From IMG/VR virus record IMGVR_UViG_3300022888_000583: 64,000 bases of DNA, one strand, 5' to 3'. Below, piece after piece: positions 3,427-32,214 of the stretch. The position numbers and the translations under genes are program-made. The stretch's first letter is position 1. Every line of letters starts with the position of its first letter. The notes beneath the pieces are model-generated. The model was given only the letters and a program-made list of their open reading frames with translations, was not told where the DNA came from and ran no database searches. Source of the stretch: a virus.

Positions 3427-3427
3427 C

Positions 3428-17521: not shown

Positions 17522-17529
17522 CTAGTTGT

Positions 17530-18369: not shown

Positions 18370-18394
18370 TTTTTCTCCTTTGAGCTTTATGTGT

Positions 18395-18787
18395 TTATAA
18401 CTTATCTACCCCATCTACCAACCAGGTAAATGGAGCTCTTATTGATTTGTCAAACTTAGCCATCATATTAATAGCACCTGCGGGATTTAATGAATGGACA
18501 TAAATAGTTTCATTATTACCTTTCACTCCCTGTTTAACTAACCACTTTGCAAATTCAGAGCCAGTATTTGACTCCTGAATACTTACCATTTGATCTCCAC
18601 CCAAATCATGATCTAAGAAATAGATATCAAAAATGGTATCATATTTATTCCACTTGATTTTGGCATCTTCAATTTCATCAGACCATACGATTTTATAATC
18701 ATCAGTATCTAACAATTCCGGCATGTGTTTATAAAACCATTCCATCCTGTCCATGTCATCTTCAAGTATAAAGACGCTTATGGTCAT
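18395..18787 (-). CDS. hypothetical protein (130 aa; receiver-like acidic pocket)
   Basis: ILEDD...DLGG pattern; weak. Confidence 0.4.
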   Translation of the reverse strand: MTISVFILEDDMDRMEWFYKHMPELLDTDDYKIVWSDEIEDAKIKWNKYDTIFDIYFLDHDLGGDQMVSIQESNTGSEFAKWLVKQGVKGNNETIYVHSLNPAGAINMMAKFDKSIRAPFTWLVDGVDKL

Positions 18788-19374
18788 TATTTAACACCGA
18801 TAATACTGTCTATCAAACCATATTCTACGGCTTCTTCTGCCGACATGAAAAAATTGCGGTCGGCATCTTTTTCAATTCGATTGAGTCTTTTGCCACAAAA
18901 TTTGGCTAACATTTGATTCATTTTCTTTTTGGTTTTTTGAATCTCTTCTGCCGCAATTATGATATCTGAAGCCTGTCCTTGGGCTCCTCCCATCGGTTGA
19001 TGAATCATAATTTTGGAATTTGGTAAAGCAAATCGTTTACCCTTTTCTCCAGCCGCTAACAATAATGCTCCCATACTAGAAGCCTGTCCAACGGCAATCG
19101 TTGAAACATCAGCTTTAATAAAATTCATTGTGTCCATAATGGCCAAGCCAGAAGTAATAATTCCACCGGGGCTATTGATATACAGATTAATATCTTTTTC
19201 ATTATCTTCAGATTCAAGAAAAAGTAATTGTGCAATTACTGCAGTAGATACATTATCGTCAATCGGAGTACTCAAGAAAATAATCCGTTCCTTTAATAGA
19301 CGACTGAAAATGTCATAAGCACGTTCTCCTCGCCCAGTTTGTTCTACAACCATTGGTATTAATTGATTAATCAT
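18787..19374 (-). CDS. clpP: ATP-dependent Clp protease proteolytic subunit
   Basis: [11 protein letters not shown] and MIHQPMGG catalytic motifs; 195 aa. Confidence 0.85.
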
Positions 19375-19377
19375 ATT

Positions 19378-19986
19378 TTAGTCTTCCATTTCTATTTCGA
19401 AAATGGCCGCTAAATTCTCACCATTTTCAATGGCCGTTTGGGCCTTATCGTAATCTTCCATTGTCACACTTTCAATTGGAAATTCACCGATTAGATGAAC
19501 TCCACCATAACCTTGACTATCCTTTTCAGCGTCGGAATACCTACCATTAATTTTATCCTTTTCAAACCCAGTATAAAATTCCAACCGCTCCGTGTCCAAA
19601 TTGATGATATATGCATATTCACAAAAAAGTGAATTGGATAAAAATTCTTCAGAATCTATCATAAATCCAACTTTAACATTTGATTCAAGTAAACCCTGTC
19701 CCTCCCTTAAAAGACAATACCAGTCGTCATCAGATTGGGTTGCAACCCCATCATCAAATAATCCATTGTCCTTGCACAACTGTTTTTGCACAGTAGTTGG
19801 GGTGTCATCTTCATTAACCATAGTAATCGCGTCAAAATCTTCATTCAGATTTTTCAAATCACGACCCCTATTTTCTAAATATAAAATTACATTCTTGCCC
19901 AATTCACTTGGATAAGAATCATAATGATTATATGTTACTTTATGTTCTCCGTTTCTAATAAATCCGAGTGCTCCTCGAGTTCCCAT
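19378..19986 (-). CDS. hypothetical protein (202 aa)
   Basis: Intact ORF. Confidence 0.45.
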   Translation of the reverse strand: MGTRGALGFIRNGEHKVTYNHYDSYPSELGKNVILYLENRGRDLKNLNEDFDAITMVNEDDTPTTVQKQLCKDNGLFDDGVATQSDDDWYCLLREGQGLLESNVKVGFMIDSEEFLSNSLFCEYAYIINLDTERLEFYTGFEKDKINGRYSDAEKDSQGYGGVHLIGEFPIESVTMEDYDKAQTAIENGENLAAIFEIEMED

Positions 19987-20282
19987 GTATCCTCCTTTGG
20001 ATAATAATAATCCGGCAAATCGTCATATTTCAGACTATTTACAGAATCTTCGTTTTTGTCCATTGTTTTTTTCAATTCTTCTGAGCTGATTTCTTTTACA
20101 TCAAGTGCAAATGCGGCACCACCAATTTCGGAAGAATCACGGCCCGCGTGGTGCATGGTCAATGAATGTTCCATAAACCATTCTTCAGCGATACGTTTAA
20201 GATATTCTTCTGAATGTTCTCCCTCAATAATATAATGATGTACGGCACGCACTTGTAAAAACGTGTACTTCTTTTCAGACAA
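19935..20282 (-). CDS. hypothetical protein (TTG start after an AAGGAG Shine-Dalgarno)
   Basis: Sits just downstream of motif copy 4. Confidence 0.4.
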   Translation of the reverse strand: MSEKKYTFLQVRAVHHYIIEGEHSEEYLKRIAEEWFMEHSLTMHHAGRDSSEIGGAAFALDVKEISSEELKKTMDKNEDSVNSLKYDDLPDYYYPKEDTWELEEHSDLLETENIK

Positions 20283-20300
20283 TTTCTGTCTCCTTTTGTG

Positions 20301-20347
20301 TTACCTGAAGATACAAGATTATATTGACAATGTCAAGCTTTATTTTA
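20301..20347 (-). promoter_or_regulatory. copy 4 of the promoter/leader motif
   Basis: Reads TACCTGAAGATACAAGATTATATTGACAATGTCAAGCTTTATTTTA. Confidence 0.55.
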
Positions 20348-20942
20348 TAAATTGTTGATTAAATTCTGTGATTTTGATACGGTTTTGACCGGGAACCCAA
20401 GGACTTTCAGCTTCACGCTGAGCCTTAATTTCGTCTCTAACTGCCATTTTGTGTTGCATTTTATTGACTACTGTGTCCCAATGAACCGGTGTGTAATTCC
20501 ACAAGTCGGTCCCAATGTCAAAGGATAGTTTATCATCCCATTCCGTTGCATTTCCGTGTGAGTGTCCGTATAGGTGCCATGATCCATGAAACGATTTGTT
20601 CCATTCACTCATTTGATAGTGGCACATTGTGATTGATTGTCCATCAATTTTTGTTTCGTACATCGGTTTGATAAATTGAAACTTTTTCTTAGCGTCGCTG
20701 TTGAGCGTATCGTGATTCCCAATGATGAGAATCTTCTGACCGTTCAATCTATCCATCCAATAATCGGGTCGCATCCATGCGAAGTCTCCCAATATATAAA
20801 CCAATGATTTTTCAGTTACAACCGAGTTCCAATTTTCAACCAATGCTTCATTCATTTCATGCACATTGTCATACGGTCTATCACAGTGCCGTATAATACT
20901 TTGATGTGCGAAATGAAGATCAGCGGTAAAAAATCGTTCCAT
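20340..20942 (-). CDS. calcineurin-like metallophosphoesterase
   Basis: Motifs DLHFAH, GDF and GNHD. Confidence 0.7.
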   Translation of the reverse strand: MERFFTADLHFAHQSIIRHCDRPYDNVHEMNEALVENWNSVVTEKSLVYILGDFAWMRPDYWMDRLNGQKILIIGNHDTLNSDAKKKFQFIKPMYETKIDGQSITMCHYQMSEWNKSFHGSWHLYGHSHGNATEWDDKLSFDIGTDLWNYTPVHWDTVVNKMQHKMAVRDEIKAQREAESPWVPGQNRIKITEFNQQFIK

Positions 20943-21092
20943 TTTTATTTTCCTTTATTTGTATAGTGAATGTATTTTCTAGGGATGATGGCCGGTTCAT
21001 CATTGTAATATACAATGCAGTCATCATTTTGTGGTACAAGTTTGTCCCCGGTAATGGGGTTTAAGTCATTTTCAATTCTACTCAAAATCAGT

Positions 21093-21398
21093 TCATTCAG
21101 ATTCGTCTTCATGTTGTTCCTTTTCTTTAAAATGTTCTATTAATTTTATTAATACTTCACCATGGCATGCTTTGGGTTTGCACCAGCATCCTAGTGTTTT
21201 TCCTTCTAATTCGTGTAATGTTTTCATTAATTCAGGTTGTCGAACTACCCACCATTTATACATTTCGATTGCTTCTTCTCTGGTATCTACTTTGTATTTG
21301 GCTAGAGCTTCACCCTTATGTGTAAATGGATTGCCCCACTTTGTAGGGCGGCCGATGTAAATATCAAACGGCTCTTTTTTCACGTGCACGCATTTCAT
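21093..21398 (-). CDS. DUF4326-like small protein (GNPF motif)
   Basis: PFDIYIGRPTKWGNPF. Confidence 0.35.
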   Translation of the reverse strand: MKCVHVKKEPFDIYIGRPTKWGNPFTHKGEALAKYKVDTREEAIEMYKWWVVRQPELMKTLHELEGKTLGCWCKPKACHGEVLIKLIEHFKEKEQHEDESE

Positions 21399-21494
21399 TA
21401 TAACCTCTTATTTTTTTGAGCGGAATGTCGGTAACGATCCGACGTCTTCACGTTGGCAACGTGATATAATGCCATTATACTAATCCCGCAATTT

Positions 21495-21845
21495 CTAGCC
21501 TATACCAAATCCCTGAACACGTTCGTAAAATTTTGGTTTATCTGTTGGTGCCCATTCCTTAGTCTCGGAATCATAAGAAAACCACTGTTCTCCATCTTCC
21601 CTTGGATATGGGTATATCCCAGGTTTAATGTGTTCAATAACAGCCAAATTATAATATCCATCTTCAGACAAGAATGTACCACCACCCATGATACAAGCGA
21701 TGGCATCGGATTCTTCTGGATACCACGCCACACATCTTGTTTTTGTTTCTGGGACAAGATCATATGATAAATCTTCTGACCACATATCCATATCCCAAGC
21801 TTCCTTTGGCACATAAATCGTTGTAACTACATAAATTGATTTCAT
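21495..21845 (-). CDS. hypothetical protein (116 aa)
   Basis: ORF. Confidence 0.4.
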   Translation of the reverse strand: MKSIYVVTTIYVPKEAWDMDMWSEDLSYDLVPETKTRCVAWYPEESDAIACIMGGGTFLSEDGYYNLAVIEHIKPGIYPYPREDGEQWFSYDSETKEWAPTDKPKFYERVQGFGIG

Positions 21846-21846
21846 T

Positions 21847-22068
21847 TTAAATATCCGTTATTGTTCTGTGATTTTTATAGTTGTTCTGGAATTCCAGTAA
21901 ATATTCTTCATTTACCGAATTCTCTCCAACCTTTTCAACTATCCAACCCTCTTCCCAATTACCATTGAGTTTCAATTTGATTGGTTTATTCTTTTTTGCA
22001 AATTTCCAAGGTATCCATGATACTTCTTTAATATTGCCTTTTGCTAGTGTACATTGTTTAAATAACAT
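21847..22068 (-). CDS. hypothetical protein (73 aa)
   Basis: ORF. Confidence 0.35.
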   Translation of the reverse strand: MLFKQCTLAKGNIKEVSWIPWKFAKKNKPIKLKLNGNWEEGWIVEKVGENSVNEEYLLEFQNNYKNHRTITDI

Positions 22069-22071
22069 AAT

Positions 22072-22638
22072 TTAGTCCCATAATGCATAAAAATTGTCTT
22101 TGAATAAATCAAAGGCCTTATCATGCTTTTCTTTACTAATAATTTCACAAGTATTTTTATCGCTATAATGTTTTTTCATGTGATCTGGCAATTTTGCATA
22201 ATCCGTATCGAATATTGCAAATCCATTTACCATTTTTTCCGCCTCTTCAAAACCAGCAATCATTTCATCCAATGTATCTAACCAAGCTTGAAATCCATCA
22301 TCCCGTTCTTTTTTTGTAGCGTCCGCTCCAACAAATGTTGAAGGTGCCCCATGTGTATCTTTTCTTAATTCTTTAAGGGGAGGAAGTATCACTTTAATAA
22401 AATGATAATCCAAGCTCCAAGATGCCGTATCGTCATAACCTCTAATTGCTCTCTGCAATGGACGTTTGATATACGTTCTGTATGGTGCATTATTGAAAAA
22501 TCTATATACTGGCCAATATGTGTGATCAGTAATAGCATCCCAAATTTTGACAATCACTTTCCTGTCCGCCTTTTCTTGTTTCCAGCGAGCTTCCATTTCT
22601 TCAAATGTTTCAGCTTTATTTAATTTTCTTTTGGTCAT
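22072..22638 (-). CDS. hypothetical protein (188 aa)
   Basis: ORF. Confidence 0.45.
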   Translation of the reverse strand: MTKRKLNKAETFEEMEARWKQEKADRKVIVKIWDAITDHTYWPVYRFFNNAPYRTYIKRPLQRAIRGYDDTASWSLDYHFIKVILPPLKELRKDTHGAPSTFVGADATKKERDDGFQAWLDTLDEMIAGFEEAEKMVNGFAIFDTDYAKLPDHMKKHYSDKNTCEIISKEKHDKAFDLFKDNFYALWD

Positions 22639-22655
22639 AATTTTATCCTTTTTAG

Positions 22656-22727
22656 AGCTCTTAAACGGTTACGATCCGATGCTTTCAGATTACGAAACTG
22701 ATGTACTACCGATTATACTATAAGAGC
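22656..22727 (-). tRNA. tRNA-Thr(CGT)
   Basis: Acceptor GCTCTTA/TAAGAGC; anticodon loop TTCGTAA; T-loop ATCGTAA. Confidence 0.55.
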
Positions 22728-22734
22728 ATTTGTG

Positions 22735-22807
22735 TCCTGCCGTGTGGAATCGAACCACAGTCACACCCATACCAAAGGTGTATTCTAACCTTCTAAACTA
22801 CAGCAGG
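22735..22807 (-). tRNA. tRNA-Thr(GGT)
   Basis: Acceptor CCTGCTG/CGGCAGG; anticodon loop TTGGTAT; T-arm TGTGGTTCGATTCCACA. Confidence 0.65.
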
Positions 22808-22810
22808 TTT

Positions 22811-23074
22811 TTACTTACCAACTTTCATATCAAAATTGGCGATTAAATTTTTCACTTTTAGAGGTTCCTCATGCATACCATCTAGAATATAAAATTTATT
22901 CAAAGTAGCTTTCTCGCCCATCATTTTTTGAAGCTTCACAGCTATTTCAAATAGTGTCTCATCATCGACTTCAAAATCAGCATTTATATCTACACAATAT
23001 GTAAACAGAAGTGCTTCAATTATTGCATTCATTTCAACCTTATTTAACTTGTCCACAGTAACCTCCATTACCAA
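22811..23074 (-). CDS. hypothetical protein (87 aa)
   Basis: ORF. Confidence 0.4.
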   Translation of the reverse strand: MVMEVTVDKLNKVEMNAIIEALLFTYCVDINADFEVDDETLFEIAVKLQKMMGEKATLNKFYILDGMHEEPLKVKNLIANFDMKVGK

Positions 23075-23607
23075 ATAATTCGTTTAACATATAAAGCATC
23101 CAAATTGTCTGTAAGCCATACCCCATTTTCAGCTAAATAAAACGGGTGACCATCATTGTGCAATTTTAATGCGTCGATAACCAATATGGCCGGATCAGAA
23201 CCTCTTCGTTTCCCAACCACTTCAGCGGTATTTTCATCCGCTGATAAATGTACATATTGTCTATTACCTTTATTCAATCCATTTTTCATAATCGAATCGA
23301 TATTTTTAGGCGGTGTCCCATGATACAATATTTCCGGTGGAGCAATTGCTTGCAGTTTCAAATCTACTTCGATTGAATGACCTTGCATCGCTCTAACCTT
23401 TTCCCCAGTGATATCAAATGCGTATCTGATTTTTGGACCAGTACTCACTATTTCTTCTAACATTTCCATAGTAAATTTGCCAGTATCTAACAAATCTGAT
23501 ACATTGGCATATCCTTCAGCATCCAATGTAATATCGAATTGTTCTGGCTTGTGTCTCAATATGAGAGCTAGCAATTTACTTTTTTTAGTTAGATTAATTC
23601 CACTCAC
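23068..23607 (-). CDS. kptA: RNA 2'-phosphotransferase (Tpt1/KptA family)
   Basis: LRHKPEQFDITLDAEGYANVSDLL...MQGHS...LYHGT...YVHLS are KptA hallmarks; 179 aa. Confidence 0.65.
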   Translation of the reverse strand: MSGINLTKKSKLLALILRHKPEQFDITLDAEGYANVSDLLDTGKFTMEMLEEIVSTGPKIRYAFDITGEKVRAMQGHSIEVDLKLQAIAPPEILYHGTPPKNIDSIMKNGLNKGNRQYVHLSADENTAEVVGKRRGSDPAILVIDALKLHNDGHPFYLAENGVWLTDNLDALYVKRIIW

Positions 23608-23791
23608 GTAATTTTACTCCACATCTTGGGCAGTTTTTATTCCACACCGCTCTGGTTTCCATAAAGCTAGGTGATACCATTGTATATTCCTTGTGTCCAA
23701 ATATACGGCACCATAATTTTTTAAGCATTATTCTCTTTGTGCTCCTGCCTTTGGACTTCTTTTTTCTCATCATCTTCACGCTCTTTGGCAA
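23594..23791 (-). CDS. small zinc-ribbon protein (65 aa)
   Basis: CxxC pairs. Confidence 0.3.
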   Translation of the reverse strand: MPKSVKMMRKKKSKGRSTKRIMLKKLWCRIFGHKEYTMVSPSFMETRAVWNKNCPRCGVKLREWN

Positions 23792-23954
23792 TCCGAGTGT
23801 ATTCCTTCATTGTGAATCTGGCAACCCAATTGCCATCTTGATTCTTTTCTTGATGAACGGTAACATCATCTCTAATAATTTCCCTATACCGTTGACCTTC
23901 ACTTATAACTTTAACTTCGCCCATAACTTTTCCTTATAATTTAATTTTGATTTG

Positions 23955-24029
23955 TACGAGTGGCAGGATTTGAACCGACGCTTGCCCAGGATGTCGACCT
24001 GGAGCTCTACCAGACTGAGCTACACCCGC
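23955..24029 (-). tRNA. tRNA-Val(GAC) as read (C33 in the loop is unusual)
   Basis: Acceptor GCGGGTG/CACTCGT; D-arm GCTCAGTCTGGTAGAGC; anticodon loop TCGACAT. Confidence 0.5.
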
Positions 24030-24034
24030 ATTTT

Positions 24035-24262
24035 TTACTCTTGTCCTATTGGACCTTCATATAAAATTTTACTGTCACCAGACCCACGCCAAGTAGTCTT
24101 TTCAACTCTGACCATATCGGTGTCAGTTTCCTTGTCATAGTAAGCGTAACATCTGATTGCTCCGCTCCATGATGCTGTATATGTTTCTATACCTGAATTC
24201 TTAGAACCACCACGACTGGTTTGTCCTCTATTACCTTGTACTGTGCCATAAAATTGTGACAT
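24035..24262 (-). CDS. hypothetical protein (75 aa; GGAGG Shine-Dalgarno; the track ORF over-extends across tRNAs)
   Basis: Internal ATG with a strong Shine-Dalgarno; the upstream part of ORF 24035..24400 overlaps two tRNAs. Confidence 0.4.
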   Translation of the reverse strand: MSQFYGTVQGNRGQTSRGGSKNSGIETYTASWSGAIRCYAYYDKETDTDMVRVEKTTWRGSGDSKILYEGPIGQE

Positions 24263-24282
24263 ATAACCTCCATTTTGTTTAG

Positions 24283-24354
24283 CTGATTCATAGGGATTCG
24301 AACCCCAACCTGACAGGCTCAGAACCTGCGATGCTACCGTTACACCATGAATCA
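24283..24354 (-). tRNA. tRNA-Gln(CTG)
   Basis: Anticodon loop TTCTGAG; T-arm TGGGGTTCGAATCCCTA. Confidence 0.6.
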
Positions 24355-24361
24355 ATTTTTG

Positions 24362-24433
24362 CAGCGGCACCCAGAATCGAACTGGAATCACCGGGTTCAA
24401 AGCCCAGTATAATCAACCGTTATACTATACCGC
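24362..24433 (-). tRNA. tRNA-Gln(TTG)
   Basis: Anticodon loop CTTTGAA; T-loop TTCGATT. Confidence 0.55.
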
Positions 24434-24455
24434 TATTCTTATAATAAGTATCGGG

Positions 24456-24800
24456 TTATTCACCCAAAAGTTGTTCTTTTTTTTCAATGTACTCAAACAG
24501 TTCGGTATAATTGTCATCATAATTATATGGACACGCTTCAATAAATTCCAATGGTTTTGCAGTACCATATCGATCATTTTCATCCCAGTGAATTTCACCG
24601 TCTAAAAATCTATCACCAAATTTATATCGTATTCCATAGAACTGTGTTTTAAATCTACCGTCACCTTTGATACAAACACCGTAACCAAAGTTACGACCGT
24701 GAATCTTATAAAATCCACCGTGGACACATTCTTCTATTGTTATCCACTCGTTAATATGTTCTGCTCTCATTTTTCTTATCCTTTTAATTTGTAGGCCCAC
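24456..24800 (-). CDS. hypothetical protein (114 aa)
   Basis: ORF. Confidence 0.45.
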   Translation of the reverse strand: MGLQIKRIRKMRAEHINEWITIEECVHGGFYKIHGRNFGYGVCIKGDGRFKTQFYGIRYKFGDRFLDGEIHWDENDRYGTAKPLEFIEACPYNYDDNYTELFEYIEKKEQLLGE

Positions 24801-24931
24801 AGGGTAATGATCCCAGTTCTACGGTTTAAAAGACCGTTGCTTCACCATTAAAGCTTTAGGCCCAAATTGATTGGTAGAGCTACCCAATCGGCTTTGATAC
24901 AATCTGGGGCTCTATCTCCCATGATCTCCAC

Positions 24932-25135
24932 CTAATTTCTATCTTTACATTGATACTTGCGGTATTCCTTCCAGCTTCTTTTCCGGTGGAATTTATTATA
25001 TGCATTACAGCCCCGATGTGGGTGACATAATGTACAATATCCTTCATCCATTGCTACTTTAAGTCGGTGGATTTTATTGAATAGTGGACTGTTATCAGTC
25101 CAATCATATTCATAATACGTTATTGATTTCATCAT
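24932..25135 (-). CDS. Cys/His-rich small protein (67 aa)
   Basis: C-x2-C and H-x-x-x-C pattern. Confidence 0.4.
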   Translation of the reverse strand: MMKSITYYEYDWTDNSPLFNKIHRLKVAMDEGYCTLCHPHRGCNAYNKFHRKRSWKEYRKYQCKDRN

Positions 25136-25196
25136 AGTTCTCCTTGTTAGGTTACTATGATGCTGTTCCTTTTTTCATATCAATTCCCTTTTGTCA

Positions 25197-25246
25197 ATAC
25201 CTGAAGATACAAGATTATTCTCACAAAGTCAAGCGTTATTTTAATT
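25197..25246 (-). promoter_or_regulatory. copy 5 of the promoter/leader motif
   Basis: ATACCTGAAGATACAAGATTATTCTCACAAAGTCAAGCGTTATTTTAA. Confidence 0.55.
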
Positions 25247-25512
25247 TAATTTCCTGTAAGCGGGGTTCTGTCCTTTAAACTTGCCATTGACCTATTTGCA
25301 TCAACCTTGCTATTATAGAATTGCTCACCTTCTAAGCTATTTTGAATTACATCCTCACCAGTACGAACGACTATTTCGTGTCTTTCAGGGTTTCTGGTTT
25401 GGCATGATTACTACAAACCCTTTTTCTTTACTCATGCCCTAACAGCTTTAACATACAGTCTCCTGAGTTAAGCAACGATGACCCGACTTTCCTCTCCGTA
25501 GAGCGACAAGTC
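25245..25512 (-). ncRNA. rnpB: candidate minimal RNase P RNA (~270 nt)
   Basis: Minus strand carries GGAGAGGAAAGTCGGGTC (P4 5' strand, compare GAGGAAAGTCCGGGCTCC) and GGACAGAACCCCGCTTACAGG (compare ACAGAACCCGGCTTATCGG) with a compensating single-nt deletion on both P4 strands. The 5' TTTTAATTTCTG and 3' CAGGAAATTAAA can form P1. The region is ORF-free. Confidence 0.45.
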
Positions 25513-25527
25513 AGAAATTAAAATGTG

Positions 25528-25610
25528 AGGAAGGTAGAAGAATCGAACTCCTGCCCGTAAGGACACCCAAGGGTTCAAACCTTGTTGCCGGCCATTCAGC
25601 GGTACCTTCC
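25528..25610 (-). tRNA. tRNA-Ser(TGA), type II
   Basis: Acceptor GGAAGGT/ACCTTCC; anticodon loop TTTGAAC (anticodon UGA reads UCA); long variable arm. Confidence 0.6.
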
Positions 25611-25615
25611 ATTTG

Positions 25616-26041
25616 TTAAATTATATTTATATCATATATCCGTTTTTCTATAATTAATGAATCGAGTTGAATAGAAACATCAATAGAATCGATGTCAAAA
25701 TGAATAGAATCATACCACAGATCAACCCGCCATTGATAATCCAATTCCAAACTATCACATTGTGCTTCTTGGCGGCCATACAATAACCAATAATAATTAA
25801 TATTATCATCGGAATATTCTTTAACATGTGCCGTTGTTGCATGAATTGATTTATTTACATTTATAATTTCAAATGAAATTCTATACATAAGTGTTTGTTC
25901 ACCGTACCATTCTGAACTTACAATGAAATATTCAGTAGTATCGGTAATTATCGGATAAATAATGTCTTCAGTAATACATGGTTCTCCACATGACATTATT
26001 AACATTATAATTATTAATATTAGACTTAATTTTTGCAACAT
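25616..26041 (-). CDS. putative lipoprotein (141 aa)
   Basis: Signal peptide with MSCGEPC lipobox-like site. Confidence 0.5.
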   Translation of the reverse strand: MLQKLSLILIIIMLIMSCGEPCITEDIIYPIITDTTEYFIVSSEWYGEQTLMYRISFEIINVNKSIHATTAHVKEYSDDNINYYWLLYGRQEAQCDSLELDYQWRVDLWYDSIHFDIDSIDVSIQLDSLIIEKRIYDINII

Positions 26042-26164
26042 AATTTTATCCCCTTCTTTCCAATTGTCATGTCGTCTGTTGCAACATGTACTTAGAACAT
26101 GTCTTAATTTTGACGATATTTAGACACGTTATTCGCTCATGTCTATATCTTAGACATGTTATTG

Positions 26165-26253
26165 TACTCCCAGCTGGACTTGAACCAACATCTCGACTTT
26201 ATCAGAATCTGACCTGTTTATAAGACAGGGGCTTTACATTAAGCTATGGGAGC
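26165..26253 (-). tRNA. type II tRNA (23-nt variable region); anticodon loop CTTATAA reads UAU; identity unclear
   Basis: Acceptor GCTCCCA/TGGGAGT; T-arm GTTGGTTCAAGTCCAGC; 89 nt. Confidence 0.4.
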
Positions 26254-26258
26254 ATGTG

Positions 26259-26333
26259 TACTCTCGGCAGGACTCGAACCTGCAACCTTTTGGGTCGAAA
26301 CCAAGAACTCTATTCCAGTTGAGCTACGAGAGC
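26259..26333 (-). tRNA. tRNA-Arg(TCG)
   Basis: Anticodon loop TTTCGAC; T-arm GCAGGTTCGAGTCCTGC. Confidence 0.6.
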
Positions 26334-26338
26334 ATGTG

Positions 26339-26409
26339 TACTGGATGGGGGAATTGAACCCGCGCCTTCTCCATGTAAAAGAGAAATTCTACCATTAAAC
26401 TAATCCAGC
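26339..26409 (-). tRNA. tRNA-Val(TAC)
   Basis: Anticodon loop TTTACAT; T-loop TTCAATT. Confidence 0.5.
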
Positions 26410-26415
26410 GTGTTG

Positions 26416-26487
26416 TGCTCCAGAGCAGACTTGAACTGCCATTCTTGGTATATCAGACCAAAGTTCTACCGTTGAACTACTGGAGAA
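26416..26487 (-). tRNA. tRNA-Ile(GAT)
   Basis: Anticodon loop CTGATAT; T-arm GGCAGTTCAAGTCTGCT. Confidence 0.55.
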
Positions 26488-26493
26488 TGTATG

Positions 26494-26567
26494 TACCTCG
26501 AGTTGGAATTGAACCAACGACCTTTGGTTTATCAGACCAACGCTCTAACCAACTGAGCTACCGAGAT
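26494..26567 (-). tRNA. tRNA-Ile(GAT), second copy with a different body
   Basis: D-arm GCTCAGTTGGTTAGAGC; anticodon loop CTGATAA. Confidence 0.55.
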
Positions 26568-26657
26568 AGGTGCGGACTCATGCGGTGTTTTGGGGGAAAC
26601 TTTGCACAAGCCCTAAAAATTGATGTAAGTTGTGTAGTGATAACGAGATACATCTAA

Positions 26658-26739
26658 TGTCGCAGTGGGGAGACTTGAACTCCCGAGTTGCCGAATATGA
26701 GCCGACACTTACACGCCTGTCTCACTGCGAAAATTGTGA
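26658..26739 (-). ncRNA. tRNA-like element (good T-arm and acceptor, no canonical anticodon or D arms)
   Basis: T-arm GGGAGTTCAAGTCTCCC and acceptor CGCAGTG/CACTGCG; ~70 nt. Confidence 0.25.
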
Positions 26740-26876
26740 CTGGAATTTCGTTTGTAACCGAAGTGCACTTCATCATTACAATTGGCCGTTTCTCCCGATT
26801 CATTGTACGGCATTGATTCTAGGGTTATTCCGATTAAATGATAATTGTACCTATACCATTTAAAGTTGTCACATAG

Positions 26877-26949
26877 CGGCCTAAGCCAGATTCGAACTAG
26901 CAACGCGAGGTACTTCACACCTCCGCTCTACCATTGGAGCTATTAGGCC
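26877..26949 (-). tRNA. tRNA-Phe(GAA)
   Basis: Acceptor GGCCTAA/TTAGGCC; anticodon loop GTGAAGT. Confidence 0.7.
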
Positions 26950-26963
26950 ATATTTAATTTTTG

Positions 26964-27045
26964 TCCCGTTAGATGGAGTCGAACCAACATTGTCCATAGA
27001 CGACGGCTTTACAGGCCGCGGGGCATCCACTTGCCCAATAACGGG
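26964..27045 (-). tRNA. tRNA-Tyr(GTA), type II
   Basis: Acceptor CCCGTTA/TAACGGG; anticodon loop CTGTAAA; long variable arm. Confidence 0.65.
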
Positions 27046-27050
27046 TTGTG

Positions 27051-27124
27051 TACTCCCACAGGGATTCGAACCCCGACTAAAAGCTTAGAAGGCTCTTGTG
27101 CTAATCCTGTTACACTATGGGAGC
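27051..27124 (-). tRNA. tRNA-Arg(TCT)
   Basis: Anticodon loop CTTCTAA; T-arm CGGGGTTCGAATCCCTG. Confidence 0.65.
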
Positions 27125-27129
27125 AGTGC

Positions 27130-27315
27130 TTAATCTTTAAACTTGAACCATATTCTTCGGCCCACTTCGATGGTTGCACCGATTGAAATCATTGCCCCAG
27201 CCATAACAAGACCGTGAGACATTAAAGACAATCCAGCGATAAAGTACAATACAAATCTCAATGCTCCGAAATATGTAAATTCCCTATCTATTGCGTATCG
27301 TTCATCTACTGTCAT
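27130..27315 (-). CDS. small hydrophobic membrane protein (61 aa)
   Basis: Track ORF; two predicted TM segments. Confidence 0.3.
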   Translation of the reverse strand: MTVDERYAIDREFTYFGALRFVLYFIAGLSLMSHGLVMAGAMISIGATIEVGRRIWFKFKD

Positions 27316-27342
27316 TTTAATAACCCTTTCTTTTTAAATTTT

Positions 27343-27415
27343 GTACACCCGGTAGGTTACGATCCTACGACCTTGAGTTTAAGAGACTCCTGCTCTGCCA
27401 ACTGAGCTACGGGTG
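27343..27415 (-). tRNA. tRNA-Lys(CTT)
   Basis: Anticodon loop CTCTTAA; unusual T-loop ATCGTAA. Confidence 0.55.
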
Positions 27416-27423
27416 CGTTTGTG

Positions 27424-27497
27424 CAGGGGTATCAGGATTCGAACCCGATCTTCATGGTTTTGGAGACCATCGTGCTACCGTTAAACACTATACCCCT
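27424..27497 (-). tRNA. tRNA-Trp(CCA)
   Basis: Acceptor AGGGGTA/TACCCCT; anticodon loop CTCCAAA. Confidence 0.65.
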
Positions 27498-27504
27498 ATG
27501 TATG

Positions 27505-27579
27505 TAGTCCCCCAGGGAGTCGAACCCTGACATTGAACGGGTCTAAGCCGCACGCCTCTACCAGTTGGGCCAGAGGACC
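27505..27579 (-). tRNA. tRNA with anticodon UAG (Leu-type) but a short variable arm (type I), A73
   Basis: Anticodon loop CTTAGAC; T-arm CAGGGTTCGACTCCCTG; 6-nt variable region. Confidence 0.45.
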
Positions 27580-27593
27580 ATTATTTGTTTTTG

Positions 27594-27666
27594 TAGCATT
27601 GGTGAGATTCGAACTCACACTGGACGATTTTTGAAACCGCTTTCTCTGCCGTTGGAATACAATGCC
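27594..27666 (-). tRNA. tRNA with anticodon CAA (Leu-type) but a short variable arm (type I), A73
   Basis: Anticodon loop TTCAAAA; T-arm GTGAGTTCGAATCTCAC. Confidence 0.45.
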
Positions 27667-27689
27667 ATTTACCTAATTTTAATTTTTGA

Positions 27690-27778
27690 TTGTGGACACA
27701 ATGGGAATCGAACCCATTACGATGTTATTCTAATTTTAAATAAGTGGAAATTGAATTTTGATCGTATCCGATATGTCC
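27690..27778 (-). ncRNA. tRNA-like with a ~40-nt AT-rich insertion (intron-bearing tRNA or degenerate)
   Basis: T-arm ATGGGTTCGATTCCCAT and acceptor GGACATA/TGTGTCC; body not canonical. Confidence 0.2.
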
Positions 27779-27779
27779 T

Positions 27780-28690
27780 TGGTAGGGTTGAGATTATACC
27801 CTTTATAGTATCCCTTTGGGAAGATTATTTATTCCTTCCTGTGTCCACGACAACCCGCTAGGGTCTATACTCTTGCGAGTAGTAAGATACCAGTCCCAGT
27901 AGGTTTAGCCTACCACTCTTATCGTTCAGGTTATCTCCACAGTTACTTATTGCTATTCAATCTTGCAGGACTGACTAAGGTTTTAACACCACTAGAACTT
28001 TCGCCATAAAACATCCGCACCTTGTGAGTTTGGTTGCCCCCGATTCATCCGAAGATGTCAGGGATTAGGGAATTTTGCTCCTAAACGCTGTCGGTCTTTT
28101 TACTTTTCAGTGAAGTGGGAATTGAACCCACACCAGTTCGCTTAGAATGCGAATTGCCTAACCAATGAGGCGATTCATGATGTATTGTGGATATTAGAAT
28201 CTGCGCCGACCAGCGATGGCGTCCTCCCTTTTGAGGAACACATACCATTCAGATTCATACCATTTCCTGGATAAGGAATTTTAGCGGTTCTTAATTATTT
28301 CCAGTTTCACCCTGCGATGAAATGTTTAGTTATACATTACAATCCAGCGTTTTACCACTCATGCAATGCTTTCCCTAGAAAATACACATAATTACTAGAA
28401 TCAAGCCCTCAGTATCCCTACCTTGAACAAGACGCTCTGGCAATCCCTATTGGATTTCTCCTCACCGGCTGTTCCACGACAACCAGATACAATCCTCTCG
28501 TTCCTGGTGGAATCTGAGGTTCATATGTTAAACCATTGTATAGATGTCTCCTATTACTAAGAGCGGCTGTTCTACGAGCCCTTTAGTCCCACTTTCGTAG
28601 GGTTATCTTCATCACCCGAAGGTGAAGCGAATCCATACATCCGAATTCTATAATTTCAAAAAACTTTGACACTCTTTCGTGTCGATGATC
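27780..28690 (-). ncRNA. ~900-nt ORF-free structured region downstream of a degenerate promoter copy; candidate large ncRNA, intron or split tRNA
   Basis: No ORF of 60 aa or more, even allowing TGA as sense. Contains a UUCG tetraloop hairpin (CACCTTCGGGTG), GNRA hairpins (CCTACGAAAGTGGG; GACACGAAAGAGTGTC) and a tRNA-like T-arm (GTGGGTTCAATTCCCAC) at 28112-28135. Confidence 0.3.
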
Positions 28691-28728
28691 AATATACAAG
28701 ATTTAAATGTAAAAGTCAAGCGTTTTTT
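28691..28728 (-). promoter_or_regulatory. copy 6 (degenerate) of the promoter motif
   Basis: AATATACAAGATTTAAATGTAAAAGTCAAGCGTTTTTTT. Confidence 0.4.
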
Positions 28729-28829
28729 TCAATTTTCTTAACTTTTTTTCTCATTCCGTATTTGTATATATATATTAGGTTATAAGCCCAAACACCATTT
28801 TTATTTCAAAAAAGTGATTTTATTTTAAG

Positions 28830-28904
28830 TACTCCCAGAAGGATTTGAACCTCCGACCCCTTGGTTCGTAGCCAAGTGCTCTATTCCAGCTGAGCTATGG
28901 GAGC
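28830..28904 (-). tRNA. tRNA-Arg(ACG)
   Basis: Anticodon loop CTACGAA; T-arm GGAGGTTCAAATCCTTC. Confidence 0.65.
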
Positions 28905-29066
28905 GTGATTTTTACTTTTTGTACTGTATATTTCCACATGGAATTTTTATCATTTTGTTCCTTAACGTACGCTTTAGCGTCCGGTTTGGATTCGTATGCC
29001 GAGTCAATTTCTGAATCTCGGTTTCCATATTTTAATTTACTTAGTACCACATATACAATTTTCATT

Positions 29067-29198
29067 TTACCAGCCTTTTTTGTGTTTAGATTTACGATTA
29101 TATTTAGTCTTATCCTTAAACACTTTCCGAGTTGGAATTGTGGTACGCATCTCAGGTCGGATGCGATTTTTGTCTTTTCTTATTAGTTTCTTTTTCAT
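29067..29198 (-). CDS. very basic small protein (43 aa, or 27 aa from an internal Met)
   Basis: MKKKLIRKDKNRIRPEMRTTIPTRKVFKDKTKYNRKSKHKKGW immediately after motif copy 7. Confidence 0.3.
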   Translation of the reverse strand: MKKKLIRKDKNRIRPEMRTTIPTRKVFKDKTKYNRKSKHKKGW

Positions 29199-29244
29199 AC
29201 CTGAAGATACAAGATTATATTGACAAAGTCAAGCGTTATTTTCG
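29195..29244 (-). promoter_or_regulatory. copy 7 of the promoter/leader motif
   Basis: Full consensus copy. Confidence 0.55.
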
Positions 29245-29264
29245 CTTATTTGAAAATAATTTTG

Positions 29265-29336
29265 ATCCCCCGACCGGCCACGATCCGATACCAAAGCTTT
29301 ACAAGAGCCTTATTCTGCCAATTAAACTACAGGGGA
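29265..29336 (-). tRNA. tRNA-Thr(TGT) (unusual T-loop ATCGTGG)
   Basis: Anticodon loop CTTGTAA. Confidence 0.5.
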
Positions 29337-29348
29337 ATTTGTATTGCT

Positions 29349-29432
29349 CATGCGGTAGGATTCGAACCTACGACGTCGCTCTCGCGAAACAGATTAACAG
29401 TCTGCCACCATCGGCCTCTCGGTCACACATGA
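29349..29432 (-). tRNA. type II tRNA; anticodon loop CTGTTAA reads GUU; identity unclear
   Basis: Acceptor TCATGTG/CGCATGA; variable-arm hairpin TCGCGAGAGCGA; T-arm GTAGGTTCGAATCCTAC. Confidence 0.4.
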
Positions 29433-29434
29433 AT

Positions 29435-30010
29435 TTATATTTTTCTATAAGATTCTATTAATCCCATTTTAAACAATTCTTTTCCAGTAAGAATTTCCAA
29501 TTCAAGTGGGAATCATTCCCACTTAGCTTCATCTTTTGGAGTCTTATAACCCTTTACTTCAACATATTGTTTTTGTTTAATCAAATAAAAATCTGGAGTA
29601 TATCTATGCCCTTTATTTTCATATTCATAATAAAAATTTTCTTTTGGTCTTCTTCATAGGATATCATTATCATCTAATCATTTGGCATAATTTAATTCTC
29701 ATTTGCCATATAATTTAACCATACCATTGCATTTACTATCATATAAATGTGTTCTACTTTTGGAAAATGAATTATGTCATGTTCCATCTTTAATTTTTTC
29801 ATTTATAGTTTTTCGTATTTTTGATTTGGTTTCATCAGATACATTTTGTCTAGGATGACCATCGGTTACTTTTTTTATCCAATTATTTCTATTTGGATTT
29901 GATTTGCAACTAACACTATGCCCTCCTAATTTTCTACCATCATCAAATTTCATTCCACAATGTTTACAAATGCTATTACCAGACCCCTTAAATCTTTTTG
30001 CATTATCCAT
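29435..30010 (-). CDS. zinc-finger / HNH-like endonuclease-type protein (~191 aa) with 4 in-frame TGA, embedded in the tRNA array
   Basis: N-terminus CKHCGMKF...GGHSVSCKSNPNRNNWIKK; the frame runs through TGA at 29777, 29699, 29678, 29654 and 29513 to TAA at 29435. Confidence 0.45.
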
Positions 30011-30089
30011 ATAAATTTCCTCTTTATTATAAGTATTAAAGAATACAAAAATATACAGACTAACGCTCTAAATAGTTTTAAAATTTTTG

Positions 30090-30161
30090 CTCCGACGACA
30101 AGATTTGAACTTGCATTACCCTGTTTAACAAACAGACGCTTTACCCATTAGCTACGTCGGA
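30090..30161 (-). tRNA. tRNA-Asn(GTT)
   Basis: Acceptor TCCGACG/CGTCGGA; anticodon loop TTGTTAA. Confidence 0.65.
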
Positions 30162-30204
30162 AATTGGATTGGGTTTTTGAATAGAACCCTTCTGTAAACT
30201 ATTA

Positions 30205-30281
30205 TGGGGTGACTAGCGGGATTCGAACCCGCACTATCTGGGTCACAGCCGGACGTGCTAACCATTATCACTATAGCCACC
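30205..30281 (-). tRNA. tRNA-His(GTG) with G-1 and an encoded CCA
   Basis: Extra 5' G pairs with C73; anticodon loop CTGTGAC; 3' CCA present. Confidence 0.65.
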
Positions 30282-30300
30282 ATGTATGTTTTTTTGTTTG

Positions 30301-30373
30301 AGTACACGGTCAGAATCGAACTGACGTCCTCCGGGTTTGCAATCCAGTGCCTATGCCTCTCAGCCACGTGTAC
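30301..30373 (-). tRNA. tRNA-Cys(GCA)
   Basis: Acceptor GTACACG/CGTGTAC; anticodon loop TTGCAAA. Confidence 0.5.
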
Positions 30374-30601
30374 ATTAATGGAAACCAATCTCTTTACTGA
30401 GCTACATTGCTTCTAGCTCCCCCGCCGAAACGGATCATCACTATAATGCAAAGACTGGAGTTGAACCAGTGACCACAAGTTTATCAGTCTGGTGCTCTTT
30501 TTAGGTTTCTCAATTGGATTCGAGGTAAGGAATTACACCTTTGTTTTTCTAATACAATGGTTCGTCAACCAAAGCATATACGCCTTTAACGCTCTCAAGT
30601 G

Positions 30602-30674
30602 TAGTTCCATAGGGGATCGAACCCTAATCTCGGGCTTGAGAAGCCCGTATCCTATCCGGTTAGACGATGGAACC
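30602..30674 (-). tRNA. tRNA-Glu(CTC)
   Basis: Anticodon stem CGGGC/GCCCG; loop TTCTCAA. Confidence 0.6.
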
Positions 30675-30680
30675 ATAATG

Positions 30681-30753
30681 TCGTCTATCGGGGAATCGAA
30701 CCCCGCTCTCAGCCTTGAAAGGGCTGTGACATAAACCGATAGTCCAATAGACG
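30681..30753 (-). tRNA. tRNA-Glu(TTC)
   Basis: Anticodon stem CAGCC/GGCTG; loop CTTTCAA. Confidence 0.6.
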
Positions 30754-30758
30754 CTGTG

Positions 30759-30833
30759 TAGCTCCAGAGGGGAACAATCCCTCTTCTCTGCCTTGAAAGG
30801 GCAGTATCCTGTATCATCCTAGACGATGGAGCC
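30759..30833 (-). tRNA. tRNA-Glu(TTC), second copy (T-loop ATTGTTC)
   Basis: Anticodon stem CTGCC/GGCAG; loop CTTTCAA. Confidence 0.5.
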
Positions 30834-30897
30834 AATTATAGAATTTTGTATCAAGTACGAGAATCTGCTTGTGGACAAATATCTATTAAAACCGCCG

Positions 30898-30968
30898 TGG
30901 GTCGTGAAGGAATCGAACCTCCATCCGTGGGGTTACAGTCCAGTATACTACCGTTGTACGAACGACCC
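30898..30968 (-). tRNA. tRNA, anticodon loop CTGTAAC (GUA?) with a weak anticodon stem; possible pseudo-tRNA
   Basis: Good acceptor GGGTCGT/ACGACCC and T-arm. Confidence 0.3.
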
Positions 30969-31027
30969 AAATTGTGAGAATTTTTAATTATATACCGCTC
31001 CCAGATTTTCTCTAACTGGCGGATTGT

Positions 31028-31100
31028 GGATACATGACGGCTTCGAACCCTCATCCTTCTGTTTGCAAAACAGATGCTTTCCCAATTAAGCTAATGACCC
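31028..31100 (-). tRNA. tRNA-Ala(TGC)-like with acceptor mismatches (no G3-U70); likely pseudo-tRNA
   Basis: Anticodon arm TCTGT-TTTGCAA-ACAGA. Confidence 0.3.
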
Positions 31101-31183
31101 GACTGCAAATTCTTTACAGGATAGTGCTAGACTGAAGGAACACCTTTGACCTATGATCACTTGATCTCCGGCTGTGTTACTTG

Positions 31184-31255
31184 TGGAGTTACTCGGTTAC
31201 GATCCGAGGACTTCTGGTTGCAAACCAGAGATTTTCCCGATTAAACTATAACCCC
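31184..31255 (-). tRNA. tRNA-Ala(TGC)
   Basis: Acceptor GGGGTTA/TAACTCC with G3-U70; anticodon loop TTTGCAA. Confidence 0.65.
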
Positions 31256-31261
31256 ATTGTG

Positions 31262-31333
31262 CGGAACTGATGGGTAACGATCCCACTTCCACGGCTTGAC
31301 AAGCCGTTGTCCATGCCTACTGACTCCAGTTCC
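31262..31333 (-). tRNA. tRNA-Asp(GTC)
   Basis: Anticodon stem ACGGC/GCCGT; loop TTGTCAA. Confidence 0.65.
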
Positions 31334-31557
31334 AGATATCCATTGTACTTCTGAATGTACCTTAAATTACCATTGTAATTATGATGCAGGATTGGCATCA
31401 GCGGTTTCGGTAAGTGAACCTGCTGAATATCGTATCACTTCTGTCGCAGTGACCAGACCTTGGTTAATTTCGACTCATATACCAAGAATGAACCGGAACG
31501 CTATGACCCCATATCGTCCCATAGGGAGTACGCTAGTACTATTTCAGATTTAGTGGC

Positions 31558-31625
31558 GGGGCCAGAAATCGCATCTGGAAACGTGAGCTTATGAGGCTCC
31601 GTGGCACTTAGCTCCCCGCAATGTA
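31558..31625 (-). ncRNA. small structured RNA / tRNA-like (possible CAU anticodon loop CTCATAA, reduced D-arm)
   Basis: Acceptor-like GCGGGGA...CCCCGC; T-arm-like CCAGATGCGATTTCTGG. Confidence 0.2.
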
Positions 31626-31629
31626 TATT

Positions 31630-31863
31630 TTAATATAATTGGTTTTTGTATAGTGCTCTATAACGAGTGGTGTCCCCGTCATTGATAATTGTGTATGTTC
31701 CATCGCTATCCGCTACAAGTTCCAATATCGGATCAACTTGTTCCAAGCTTTCCAATGCCGAATTATGAACTTGTTCTTCAGTATAACTTAGGAATAGGAA
31801 TGCGAAAATTACGGTAATCCATATTACCCGTGTCCAATGATTTTTTGTAATCTTAAACATCAA
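31630..31863 (-). CDS. small secreted/membrane protein (77 aa)
   Basis: Track ORF; hydrophobic N-terminus. Confidence 0.35.
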   Translation of the reverse strand: MMFKITKNHWTRVIWITVIFAFLFLSYTEEQVHNSALESLEQVDPILELVADSDGTYTIINDGDTTRYRALYKNQLY

Positions 31864-31869
31864 AAACCT

Positions 31870-32214
31870 CTAGTCGCAAAAGCATGACACTACATGGTCA
31901 ATGGTAACTGGCAGATGTAATTCTGCATCTGAATTATGGATAGCATTACTTGTGCGATATCCTTCTTCATAATATTCTTTTCTAGGAGAATACAATTCCC
32001 GTTCGATGTCAGCCTTAACTGTGGCCGAAACTTTATCCGTAGGAAACCACGCGTCCAAATCAATAATATTATATGAAGATGGATCGCTATGGCTCTGTGA
32101 AATTACCATTACTATCATTTTGTTACCTTTATTTTTTAGGAGTAAATTTATCACTAAAGATGTAATTGAAAGCCCAATCGCTTTCATATCTCCCAAGTGA
32201 TAATACAAGTACAA
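31870..32214 (-). CDS. hypothetical protein (114 aa)
   Basis: Track ORF. Confidence 0.35.
   Translation of the reverse strand: MYLYYHLGDMKAIGLSITSLVINLLLKNKGNKMIVMVISQSHSDPSSYNIIDLDAWFPTDKVSATVKADIERELYSPRKEYYEEGYRTSNAIHNSDAELHLPVTIDHVVSCFCD

Follow-up and report, generated by a model that had tools for sequence, protein, structure and literature searches.

The window analysed here, a stretch of 64,000 nucleotides (nt) from IMG/VR virus record IMGVR_UViG_3300022888_000583, carries 41 tRNA genes, a tmRNA and a GOLLD RNA, all on the minus strand. On this same strand, starting 3 nt past the end of tRNA-Ser(UGA) and stopping 7 nt short of a promoter-like motif, lies a gene of ∼279 nt (25523..25245), including an 86-nt insert, which on comparative evidence almost certainly encodes a genuine phage homologue of bacterial type-A RNase P RNA without its specificity domain (S-domain). 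That the virus encodes a minimal RNase P RNA here, next to its tRNA genes, had been proposed from the sequence alone (hereafter, the original prediction), and homology to the Rfam family RF00010, the covariance model R1 described below, covariation in the catalytic domain (C-domain) and co-orientation with the tRNAs all agree with that proposal. The stretch had been described as free of open reading frames (ORFs), and only trivial ones (≤53 amino acids) overlap it. Its span, given as 25245-25512, holds at the 25245 end and falls short at the other, the true span being 25245-25523; 86 nt of this belong to a foreign double-pseudoknot module within the remnant S-domain hairpin, which had not been foreseen.

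Aligned end to end with RF00010 (model positions 1-367), positions 25241-25522 score 41.9 bits (E 1e-11 in a 551-nt search), with high posterior probability in conserved regions I, IV and V (CR-I, CR-IV, CR-V) and in J15/16; the P18 columns are deleted, and the regions of P8/P9/P10-14 are skipped. With the Rfam gathering thresholds applied, the 64-kb window yields GOLLD, tmRNA and tRNAs and no RNase P family, so that the Rfam search suggested in the original prediction bears it out as regards the RF00010 match and not as regards the gathering score. The S-domain and P18 are wanting and the score falls under the threshold, so the RNA does not qualify as a full member of RF00010; the locus is best filed as a minimal variant of type-A RNase P RNA.

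The covariance model R1 was seeded with 22 sequences from IMG/VR viral contigs, the window and its near-identical relative L045 being excluded and P4 and P6 being kept unpaired. On the 64-kb window, R1 gives a single real match, at 25250-25517 (129.7 bits, E 6e-38), which covers model positions 1-184 of 184 and treats ∼86 nt between the strands of one hairpin (hairpin Y) as an insertion. An identical 291-nt sequence comprising RNA and module (100%) occurs in four independent assemblies, one of them from Saanich Inlet at 200 m (samples holding it are Saanich Inlet 3300000174, SRR3719647 and ERZ27237626), and this recurrence indicates that the chimeric gene is real rather than an assembly artefact.

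A type-A RNase P RNA cut to its catalytic domain

The window RNA is a type-A RNase P RNA cut to the catalytic domain (P1-P6, P15-P17, CR-I, CR-IV, CR-V and the GGU of L15) plus a stub of the S-domain. In a MAFFT alignment of 22 minimal sequences, with P1-P6, a P7-like stem, hairpin Y, P15, P16 and P17 written out, 88% of cells are paired (versus 35-42% with slid partners), the covariation score is 0.617 (versus 0.09-0.155), and 41 of the 51 pairs change on both sides. Running R1 over 69 loci yielded 48 matches and an alignment of 43 distinct sequences, in which 94.2% of cells are paired across P1, P2, P3, P5, the P7-like stem, P15, P16 and P17 (33-41% with slid partners), with a covariation score of 0.622 (0.06-0.10 in controls) and changes on both sides in 33 of 39 pairs. 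P4, which R1 does not model, is 98.5% paired in the same 43 sequences, and five of its eight pairs covary (for example GGAAACUCAGGAC/AAUCCUGGUUA, GGAAGGUCAGGAC/AAUCCUGCCUA and GGAAAUUCUGGAC/AAUCCAGAUUA). For P6, helices formed within a single sequence average 5.24 base pairs (bp), compared with 3.51 bp in cross-sequence pairings, and the lineage variants include GAGAC/GUCUC, UUACGC/GCGUAA, UGACAC/GUGUCA and AGGGAAU/AUUCCCU.

The complementary ends that the original prediction assigned to P1 can indeed pair: the 5′ strand UUUUAAUUUCUG (25512..25523) faces the 3′ strand CAGGAAAUUAAA (25245..25256), the columns being 77-85% paired with every pair covarying. P2 joins ACUUGUC (25505..25511) to GGCAAGU (25279..25285) and is 98-99% paired, six of six pairs changing on both sides. 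P3 is minimal (GCUCUACGGAGAG, 25492..25504), consisting of a stem of 3-4 bp with a C(UACG)G tetraloop; it is invariant or covarying in all relatives, its middle pair changing from U-A to A-U. Longer versions of P3 and P15, extended by RNAalifold with G-C pairs, conflicted with the covarying P2 and P5 and were dropped.

Both P4 motifs named in the original prediction are present, GAGGAAAGUCGGG at 25494-25482 and ACAGAACCCCGCUUACAGG at 25271-25253. The former lies within GAGGAAAGUCGGGU (25481..25494), which combines CR-I with the 5′ strand of P4 and its bulged U and carries posterior probability ‘*’ in the RF00010 alignment; the latter combines CR-V with the 3′ strand of P4, as placed by the RF00010 alignment and by P4 covariation, and the minus-strand 3′ end as a whole reads ACAGAACCCCGCUUACAGGAAAUUAAA, that is, CR-V, the P4 3′ strand and the P1 3′ strand. 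The compensatory deletion said to affect each strand is not there, as both keep the consensus length; relative to the bacterial consensus, the second C-G pair is swapped to G-C (a compensatory change) and the last pair is a U.C mismatch. P5 pairs CAUC (25477..25480) with GAUG (25350-25353) and is 99-100% paired, with three of four pairs covarying, and the P6 pseudoknot, identified by lineage-wise covariation, links UUGCUUA in J5/7 (25469..25475) to UGAGCAA in the P17 loop (25321-25327).

What remains of the specificity domain (25358..25466) comprises a 4-bp P7-like stem (stem X; 25466-25463 with 25361-25358; 90% paired, 3-4 pairs covarying), the 3-bp hairpin Y (GAC at 25460-25458 with GUC at 25371-25369) and two conserved joiners, GGAG and CGUUNNUAC, in all ∼45 nt if the insert is not counted. 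Inspection by eye shows hairpin Y to covary (GAC/GUC, GAU/AUC, GGU/ACC, GGA/UCC, GAA/UUC). This RNA has no P8, P9, P10-P14, P18 or CR-II/III (the site that recognises the tRNA T-loop), and with P8-P14 missing nearly the whole specificity domain is gone. Of the helices that the original prediction singled out for a folding check, P1-P4 and P15 are present and covarying, and equivalents of P10-12 are essentially absent; P1, P2, P3, P5 and P15 follow the canonical order and are 85-100% paired. The P15-P16-P17 arm (25298..25346) is 86-97% paired, with all pairs covarying (P15, 25346-25344 with 25302-25300; P16, 25337-25335 with 25311-25309; P17, 25334-25330 with 25320-25316), and the GGU of L15 (25306-25304) is invariant in alignments A3 and A4. 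CR-IV/J15-2 reads AAUAGGUCAAUGG (25284..25296), aligned to the RF00010 consensus UAGAUGAAUG, with P18 absent. Among sequence motifs, the RNA keeps CR-I, CR-IV, CR-V, the bulged U, the adenines (AA) of J5/15 and the L15 GGU.

Phage relatives and cellular counterparts

Exact-pattern scans of IMG/VR with ACAGAACCCCGCTTA, CTACGGNGAGGAAAGTC and TACGGNGAGGAANNTCNGGNC uncovered numerous RNase P-like genes on viral contigs as long as 675 kb; these genes form a graded size series from ∼330 nt down to ∼195 nt. Relatives of ∼280 nt exceed the Rfam gathering score (171 bits in L175, 157 in L195 and 147 in L056), and those of ∼200 nt score near the window copy (46 bits in L132, 38 in L188). We define a minimal class by a full-length R1 match, a C(UACG)G P3, the succession GGAG - hairpin Y - CGUUNNUAC, lack of P18 and a core of 190-245 nt, and the window copy falls within this definition. 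Class members score 88-174 bits with R1, compared with ≤60 bits for larger type-A-like phage forms and bacterial genomes, one at 68 bits excepted. In 80 GTDB loci bearing the P3-P4 pattern, the best score among the matches listed is 60 bits, for RNAs of 250-350 nt; since this set consists of listed matches pre-filtered by that pattern, R1-based specificity for phages is suggestive only.

Two contigs, L045 (the 97%-identical relative) and L132, are syntenic with the tRNA/GOLLD region of the window at 75-97% identity. In L132, from a phage closely related to that of the window, a truncated RNA of the window type (3409-3532, minus strand; model positions 15-137) lacks L15 and the 3′ strands of P15 and P4, and is directly followed by a second RNase P RNA (3211-3400, minus strand) that is divergent, complete and minimal, with a covaried P4 (GGAAGCUCAGGA/UCCUGGCUA).

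A blastn search of 50,697 GenBank phages with the RNA and two relatives recovered the internal module only, and by megablast 20 kb of the window found no match among the same phages; at blastn sensitivity, a homologue is not detectable in any cultured phage. No description of a phage RNase P RNA was found in the openly searchable literature, and the family appears to be both sizeable and undescribed. That its genes are unannotated in viral genomes is explained by scores below the Rfam threshold.

Like bacterial type-A RNAs such as E. coli M1 RNA and that of Thermotoga maritima, the phage RNA follows the order P1-P2-P3-P4-P5, P15-P16-P17, P2′-P4′-P1′, has a P4 pseudoknot with a bulged U and a GGU in L15, and contains CR-I (GAGGAAAGUC), CR-IV (UAGNNNAAUG) and CR-V (ACAGAANCC..GCUUA); it also shares the P6 pseudoknot (J5/7-L17) and the P16-P17 arm, features that separate type A from type B. 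It differs from them in lacking P8, P9, P10-P14, CR-II/III and P18, in reducing P3 to a UACG hairpin of 3-4 bp, in having a core of ∼195 nt rather than 330-400 nt with an Rfam score under the gathering threshold, in being encoded in a phage tRNA operon and, in the window copy, in bearing a foreign 86-nt module. P18, with its GNRA loop, is dispensable in some bacteria.

Reduction on a similar scale has a cellular parallel in type T of Pyrobaculum and other Thermoproteaceae (RF02357), a natural RNase P RNA of ∼200 nt in which the catalytic domain is kept and the specificity domain nearly lost. Type T combines an archaeal core with archaeal protein partners; the phage RNA is, unlike type T, derived from bacterial type A, because RF00010 is the best-matching clan member and because P6 and P15-P17 have the bacterial form. 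Loss of peripheral helices is also tolerated in the 276-nt RNA of Mycoplasma fermentans and in engineered ‘Micro P’ or C-domain-only constructs, and the bacterial C-domain still cleaves pre-tRNA together with protein. Those RNAs either keep P10-P12 and CR-II/III or are laboratory-made, whereas the phage family is natural, smaller and marked by covariation indicative of selection. If our assignment is correct, no known RNase P RNA of bacterial type would be smaller than its smallest members, a parallel to archaeal type T, and the natural deletion series from ∼330 to ∼195 nt would show which type-A parts are dispensable in vivo.

The inserted double-pseudoknot module

The 86-nt insert (25372..25457, minus strand), delimited by comparison with L045 and by R1, occupies the loop of hairpin Y and is a double-pseudoknot module in its type-1 permutation. 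L045 has no module, with UAACC in its place (...GGAGACU-UAACC-GUCG...). The hairpin Y loop is an expansion site, of 4-8 nt in the smallest forms and holding inserts of 40-60 nt in L197, L204, L209, L215, L221 and L227. The insert at this same site in L227 (gene at 758-1000, minus strand) contains a hairpin resembling a tRNA T-arm (GUGGGUUCAAGUCCCAC).

Sixty distinct module copies define a nested double pseudoknot of three helices, which in the window are A (25438-25432 with 25407-25401), B (25420-25415 with 25393-25388) and C (CUG at 25445-25443 with CAG at 25396-25394). The signal is strongest between CU(G/C)UUAGG and CAAAC(C/G)AG, where G-C/C-G covariation is perfect (47/13), and the conserved strings are GCUGUUAGG, GAAAAAGGGUU, UAGUAA, CAAACCAG and CYGAAAGAC. 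The motif measures ∼75-140 nt and exists in two natural circular permutations; type 1 is closed by a terminal helix of 7-12 bp and, in arrays, fills a tRNA-sized slot, with 0-1 nt separating it from the tRNA ahead of it and 2-8 nt from the one that follows.

A pattern scan found the module in 105 IMG/VR contigs; besides the window, copies lie at L001:1490-1580, L003:1500-1600, L005:1490-1615 and in L229-L333, and a P100 copy lies at 129089-129130 with its flanks. Unannotated DNA next to tRNA genes matches it in Pectobacterium phage PM2, the Listeria P100 group, Vibrio phage Va1, Flavobacterium phage immuto, Xanthomonas phage XaC1 and T5-like phages of Proteus, Pectobacterium and Klebsiella; overall, T4-like, T5-like, P100-like and jumbo phages, as well as many uncultivated ones, carry it alongside tRNA genes or in the gaps that separate them.

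No Rfam family matches the module. Models of HDV-like (hepatitis delta virus-like), twister, hatchet, pistol and hammerhead ribozymes find nothing at E≤10 over 25100-25650, and nothing at E≤1 over five module-bearing phage loci; the helix order resembles the nested double pseudoknot of HDV, but the P3 hairpin is absent. Several other identities were considered. The copies in PM2, P100, Va1, XaC1 and immuto are not parts of larger RNase P-like RNAs, there being no P4 motifs and no RF00010 match nearby; no T4 match turned up that would equate the module with T4 rnaC/rnaD; and a GUAUG/CGUAC closing stem was rejected, CGUAC being part of the family-wide joiner CGUUNNUAC, present also in module-less L045. 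A metagenome scan for other chimeras of module and RNase P RNA gave eight matches, all due to chance.

On these comparisons, the module is a separate and widespread phage RNA fold that arrived recently in the window lineage. Since relatives do without it, it is not needed for the core function; in the window RNA it may act as a substitute substrate-binding domain, as a stabilising domain or as a passenger, and in its own right it is a candidate for a new ribozyme, for a tRNA-like RNA or for an element that binds protein or tRNA. The module-bearing copy offers a test case for the replacement of a specificity domain by a foreign RNA domain.

Function and genomic setting

Transfer RNAs accompany nearly all of these genes. 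They are present at 23 of the 25 minimal-gene loci, every one co-oriented with the RNase P RNA, and in 12 such loci a tRNA lies ≤18 nt from a model end. In the window, the gene immediately upstream is tRNA-Ser(UGA) (25527..25610, minus strand; ARAGORN), which has no encoded CCA; the same holds for 37 of the 41 tRNAs, and 12 spacers measure only 4-6 nt (16585-33774, minus strand). Directly 3′ of the RNA lies the promoter-like motif AACGCTTGACTTTGTG ... TATCTT (25204..25237, minus strand), with sigma-70-like hexamers, which would open the next transcription unit. The motif, AACGCTTGACTTTGTS, occurs 19 times in the window versus 0.59 expected by chance (sites include 25222-25237, 28709-28724, 33817-33832 and 48071-48086), is conserved in L132 and probably marks the starts of phage transcription units. 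The next same-strand copy upstream of the RNase P RNA precedes GOLLD, and from these motif positions we infer one unit in the order GOLLD - 13 tRNAs - small ORF - tRNA-Ser - RNase P RNA. The GOLLD RNA (27785-28257, minus strand; 190 bits), which embeds tRNA-Arg(UCU) at 28107-28180, belongs to the same inferred unit; GOLLD and a minimal RNase P RNA also occur together in L132 and L188.

The RNA is probably the catalytic subunit of an enzyme that matures the phage's own tRNAs with a host protein. As the last gene of a unit starting at the promoter-like motif near 28724, it would have its 5′ end freed as the 3′ end of tRNA-Ser, 3 nt upstream, is processed, would fold via the P4 and P6 pseudoknots, and would probably bind host RnpA. 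Its substrates would be the tmRNA precursor and the phage's tRNAs, at least 41 in number, from which it would remove 5′ leaders; as many tRNAs lie only 4-6 nt apart, one cut would both mature a 5′ end and release the neighbouring tRNA. Processing capacity for tRNAs would be raised during infection, and the gene may, as the original prediction has it, serve under host shut-off.

Several observations weigh against this assignment and function. The RF00010 score is 41.9 bits against a gathering score of 100, and ∼21 nt of the R1 match are not independent, because the seeds were collected by a P3-P4 pattern that the window also matches. The tRNA-elbow-recognising specificity domain (P8-P14, CR-II/III) and P18 are lost, P3 is a stub of 3-4 bp, P15 has only 2-3 pairs in the window copy, and the terminal P4 pair is a U.C mismatch. 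In type-A RNase P, the L15 GGU pairs with the CCA of tRNA; most window tRNAs have no encoded CCA, so the GGU finds no partner on the primary transcripts, and yet the family keeps it. The transcription-unit model is built on motif positions only. Finally, the protein partner is assumed, as no gene for an RNase P protein was found in the window or neighbouring loci: an RNR-motif regular expression found no RnpA in six frames of the 64-kb window, and tblastn with E. coli and B. subtilis RnpA against 3 Mb of loci gave spurious matches only (E>1).

A more elaborate scheme, which we consider unlikely, is that of a self-sufficient processing system tuned to tightly packed tRNA arrays without CCA, in which the module, of 75-90 nt, is a portable docking domain for tRNA or RNase P. 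Joined to the S-domain stub, the module would make up for the loss of tRNA-elbow recognition; where it occupies a tRNA slot by itself, in T4-like, T5-like, SPO1-like and jumbo phages, it would work in cis on the adjacent pre-tRNAs or else undergo maturation as a tRNA does. The module would then represent a new class of functional RNA, either a ribozyme or a substrate-recognition domain.

It is quite unlikely that the RNA is a decoy or sponge that has kept the protein-binding core without cleavage and titrates host RnpA or competes for pre-tRNA. Loss of the S-domain and P18, the minimal P3 and P15, and the want of a phage RnpA in the 64-kb window and the 3 Mb of loci would suit such a role, and there is a viral precedent in the RNase P-like RNA of camelpox, a eukaryotic poxvirus, which is reported to lack pre-tRNA processing activity (PMC3001073). 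For that RNA a regulatory-decoy role has been discussed, and cited experiments excluded sequestration of the host RNase P proteins (PMC3001073); no covarying family is described for it, unlike for the phage RNA. No other viral RNase P-like RNA was found in the openly searchable literature. In the phage family, however, the bulged U of P4, the ACAGAA of CR-V, the J5/15 adenines, the L15 GGU and P6 are invariant or covarying; these catalytic and substrate-contact elements would be superfluous in a protein sponge, and their conservation therefore counts against a decoy. A position within the phage's own tRNA operons, in the same orientation, also suits a processing enzyme more than an inhibitor.

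Very unlikely, in our estimate, is an active RNase P-type ribozyme that, instead of tRNAs, would mainly target the tmRNA precursor, the pseudoknot modules or the GOLLD RNA in which a tRNA is embedded. GOLLD does share the inferred unit, and is found again in L132 and L188; loss of the S-domain would relax recognition of the tRNA elbow; and type-1 modules are tRNA-like in their slot and in their closing helix of 7-12 bp. Most family members, however, lie among plain tRNAs with neither GOLLD nor module in the stretch retrieved, no other neighbour is nearly as common as tRNAs, and the two kinds of substrate are compatible with each other.

Least probable by our reckoning is a decaying relic, a captured fragment of host rnpB heading for loss with the module insertion marking its inactivation, as the truncated copy adjoining a full one in L132, the interruption by the module, and the U.C mismatch at the P4 end and weak P15 of the window copy might suggest, since that copy lacks none of the family's helices and motifs and reaches 129.7 bits over its full length, the insertion occupies a terminal loop where the RNA naturally expands (with inserts of 40-60 nt in six other lineages), compensatory change throughout the family is a mark of purifying selection, and four assemblies hold the identical sequence.

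RNase P RNA is regarded as a housekeeping ribozyme common to all cells. Were the RNA the catalytic subunit of a tRNA-maturing enzyme, as we favour, a ribozyme for tRNA 5′ maturation would join tRNAs, tmRNA and RNA-repair enzymes among the translation functions of large phages. A phage parallel is offered by theta ribozymes, minimal HDV-like ribozymes encoded by phages in tRNA arrays and proposed to take part in tRNA maturation (PMC10879173). The RNase P homologue is likewise phage-encoded and embedded in tRNA arrays, but theta ribozymes are self-cleaving and act in cis on 3′ trailers, whereas it would be a trans-acting RNase P homologue for 5′ leaders.

Other window genes touch on the same theme. 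The phage tmRNA (4236-4594, minus strand; 96.9 bits) has the predicted tag GTNYAYPVAA, and an RNA-repair set on the minus strand comprises a T4 Rnl1-like ligase (45913-46998), an RlaP nucleotidyltransferase (47245-48027) and a Tpt1/KptA-like RNA 2′-phosphotransferase (23068-23607). Taken with the tRNAs and the RNase P RNA, these genes suggest that the phage invests broadly in supplying and repairing tRNAs. Recognisable gene products of the window are GroEL, NAPRTase, NAD synthetase, Rnl1-like ligase, RlaP, a Tpt1-like protein, Mom and a SAM-lyase-like protein. Viral origin is supported by IMG/VR synteny, by Mom and the SAM-lyase-like, RlaP and Rnl1-like proteins, by GOLLD and tmRNA, and by a huge-phage protein match: a 787-amino-acid window protein is 36% identical to a protein of a 484-kb uncultured huge phage. 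The source genome is marine and huge-phage-like.
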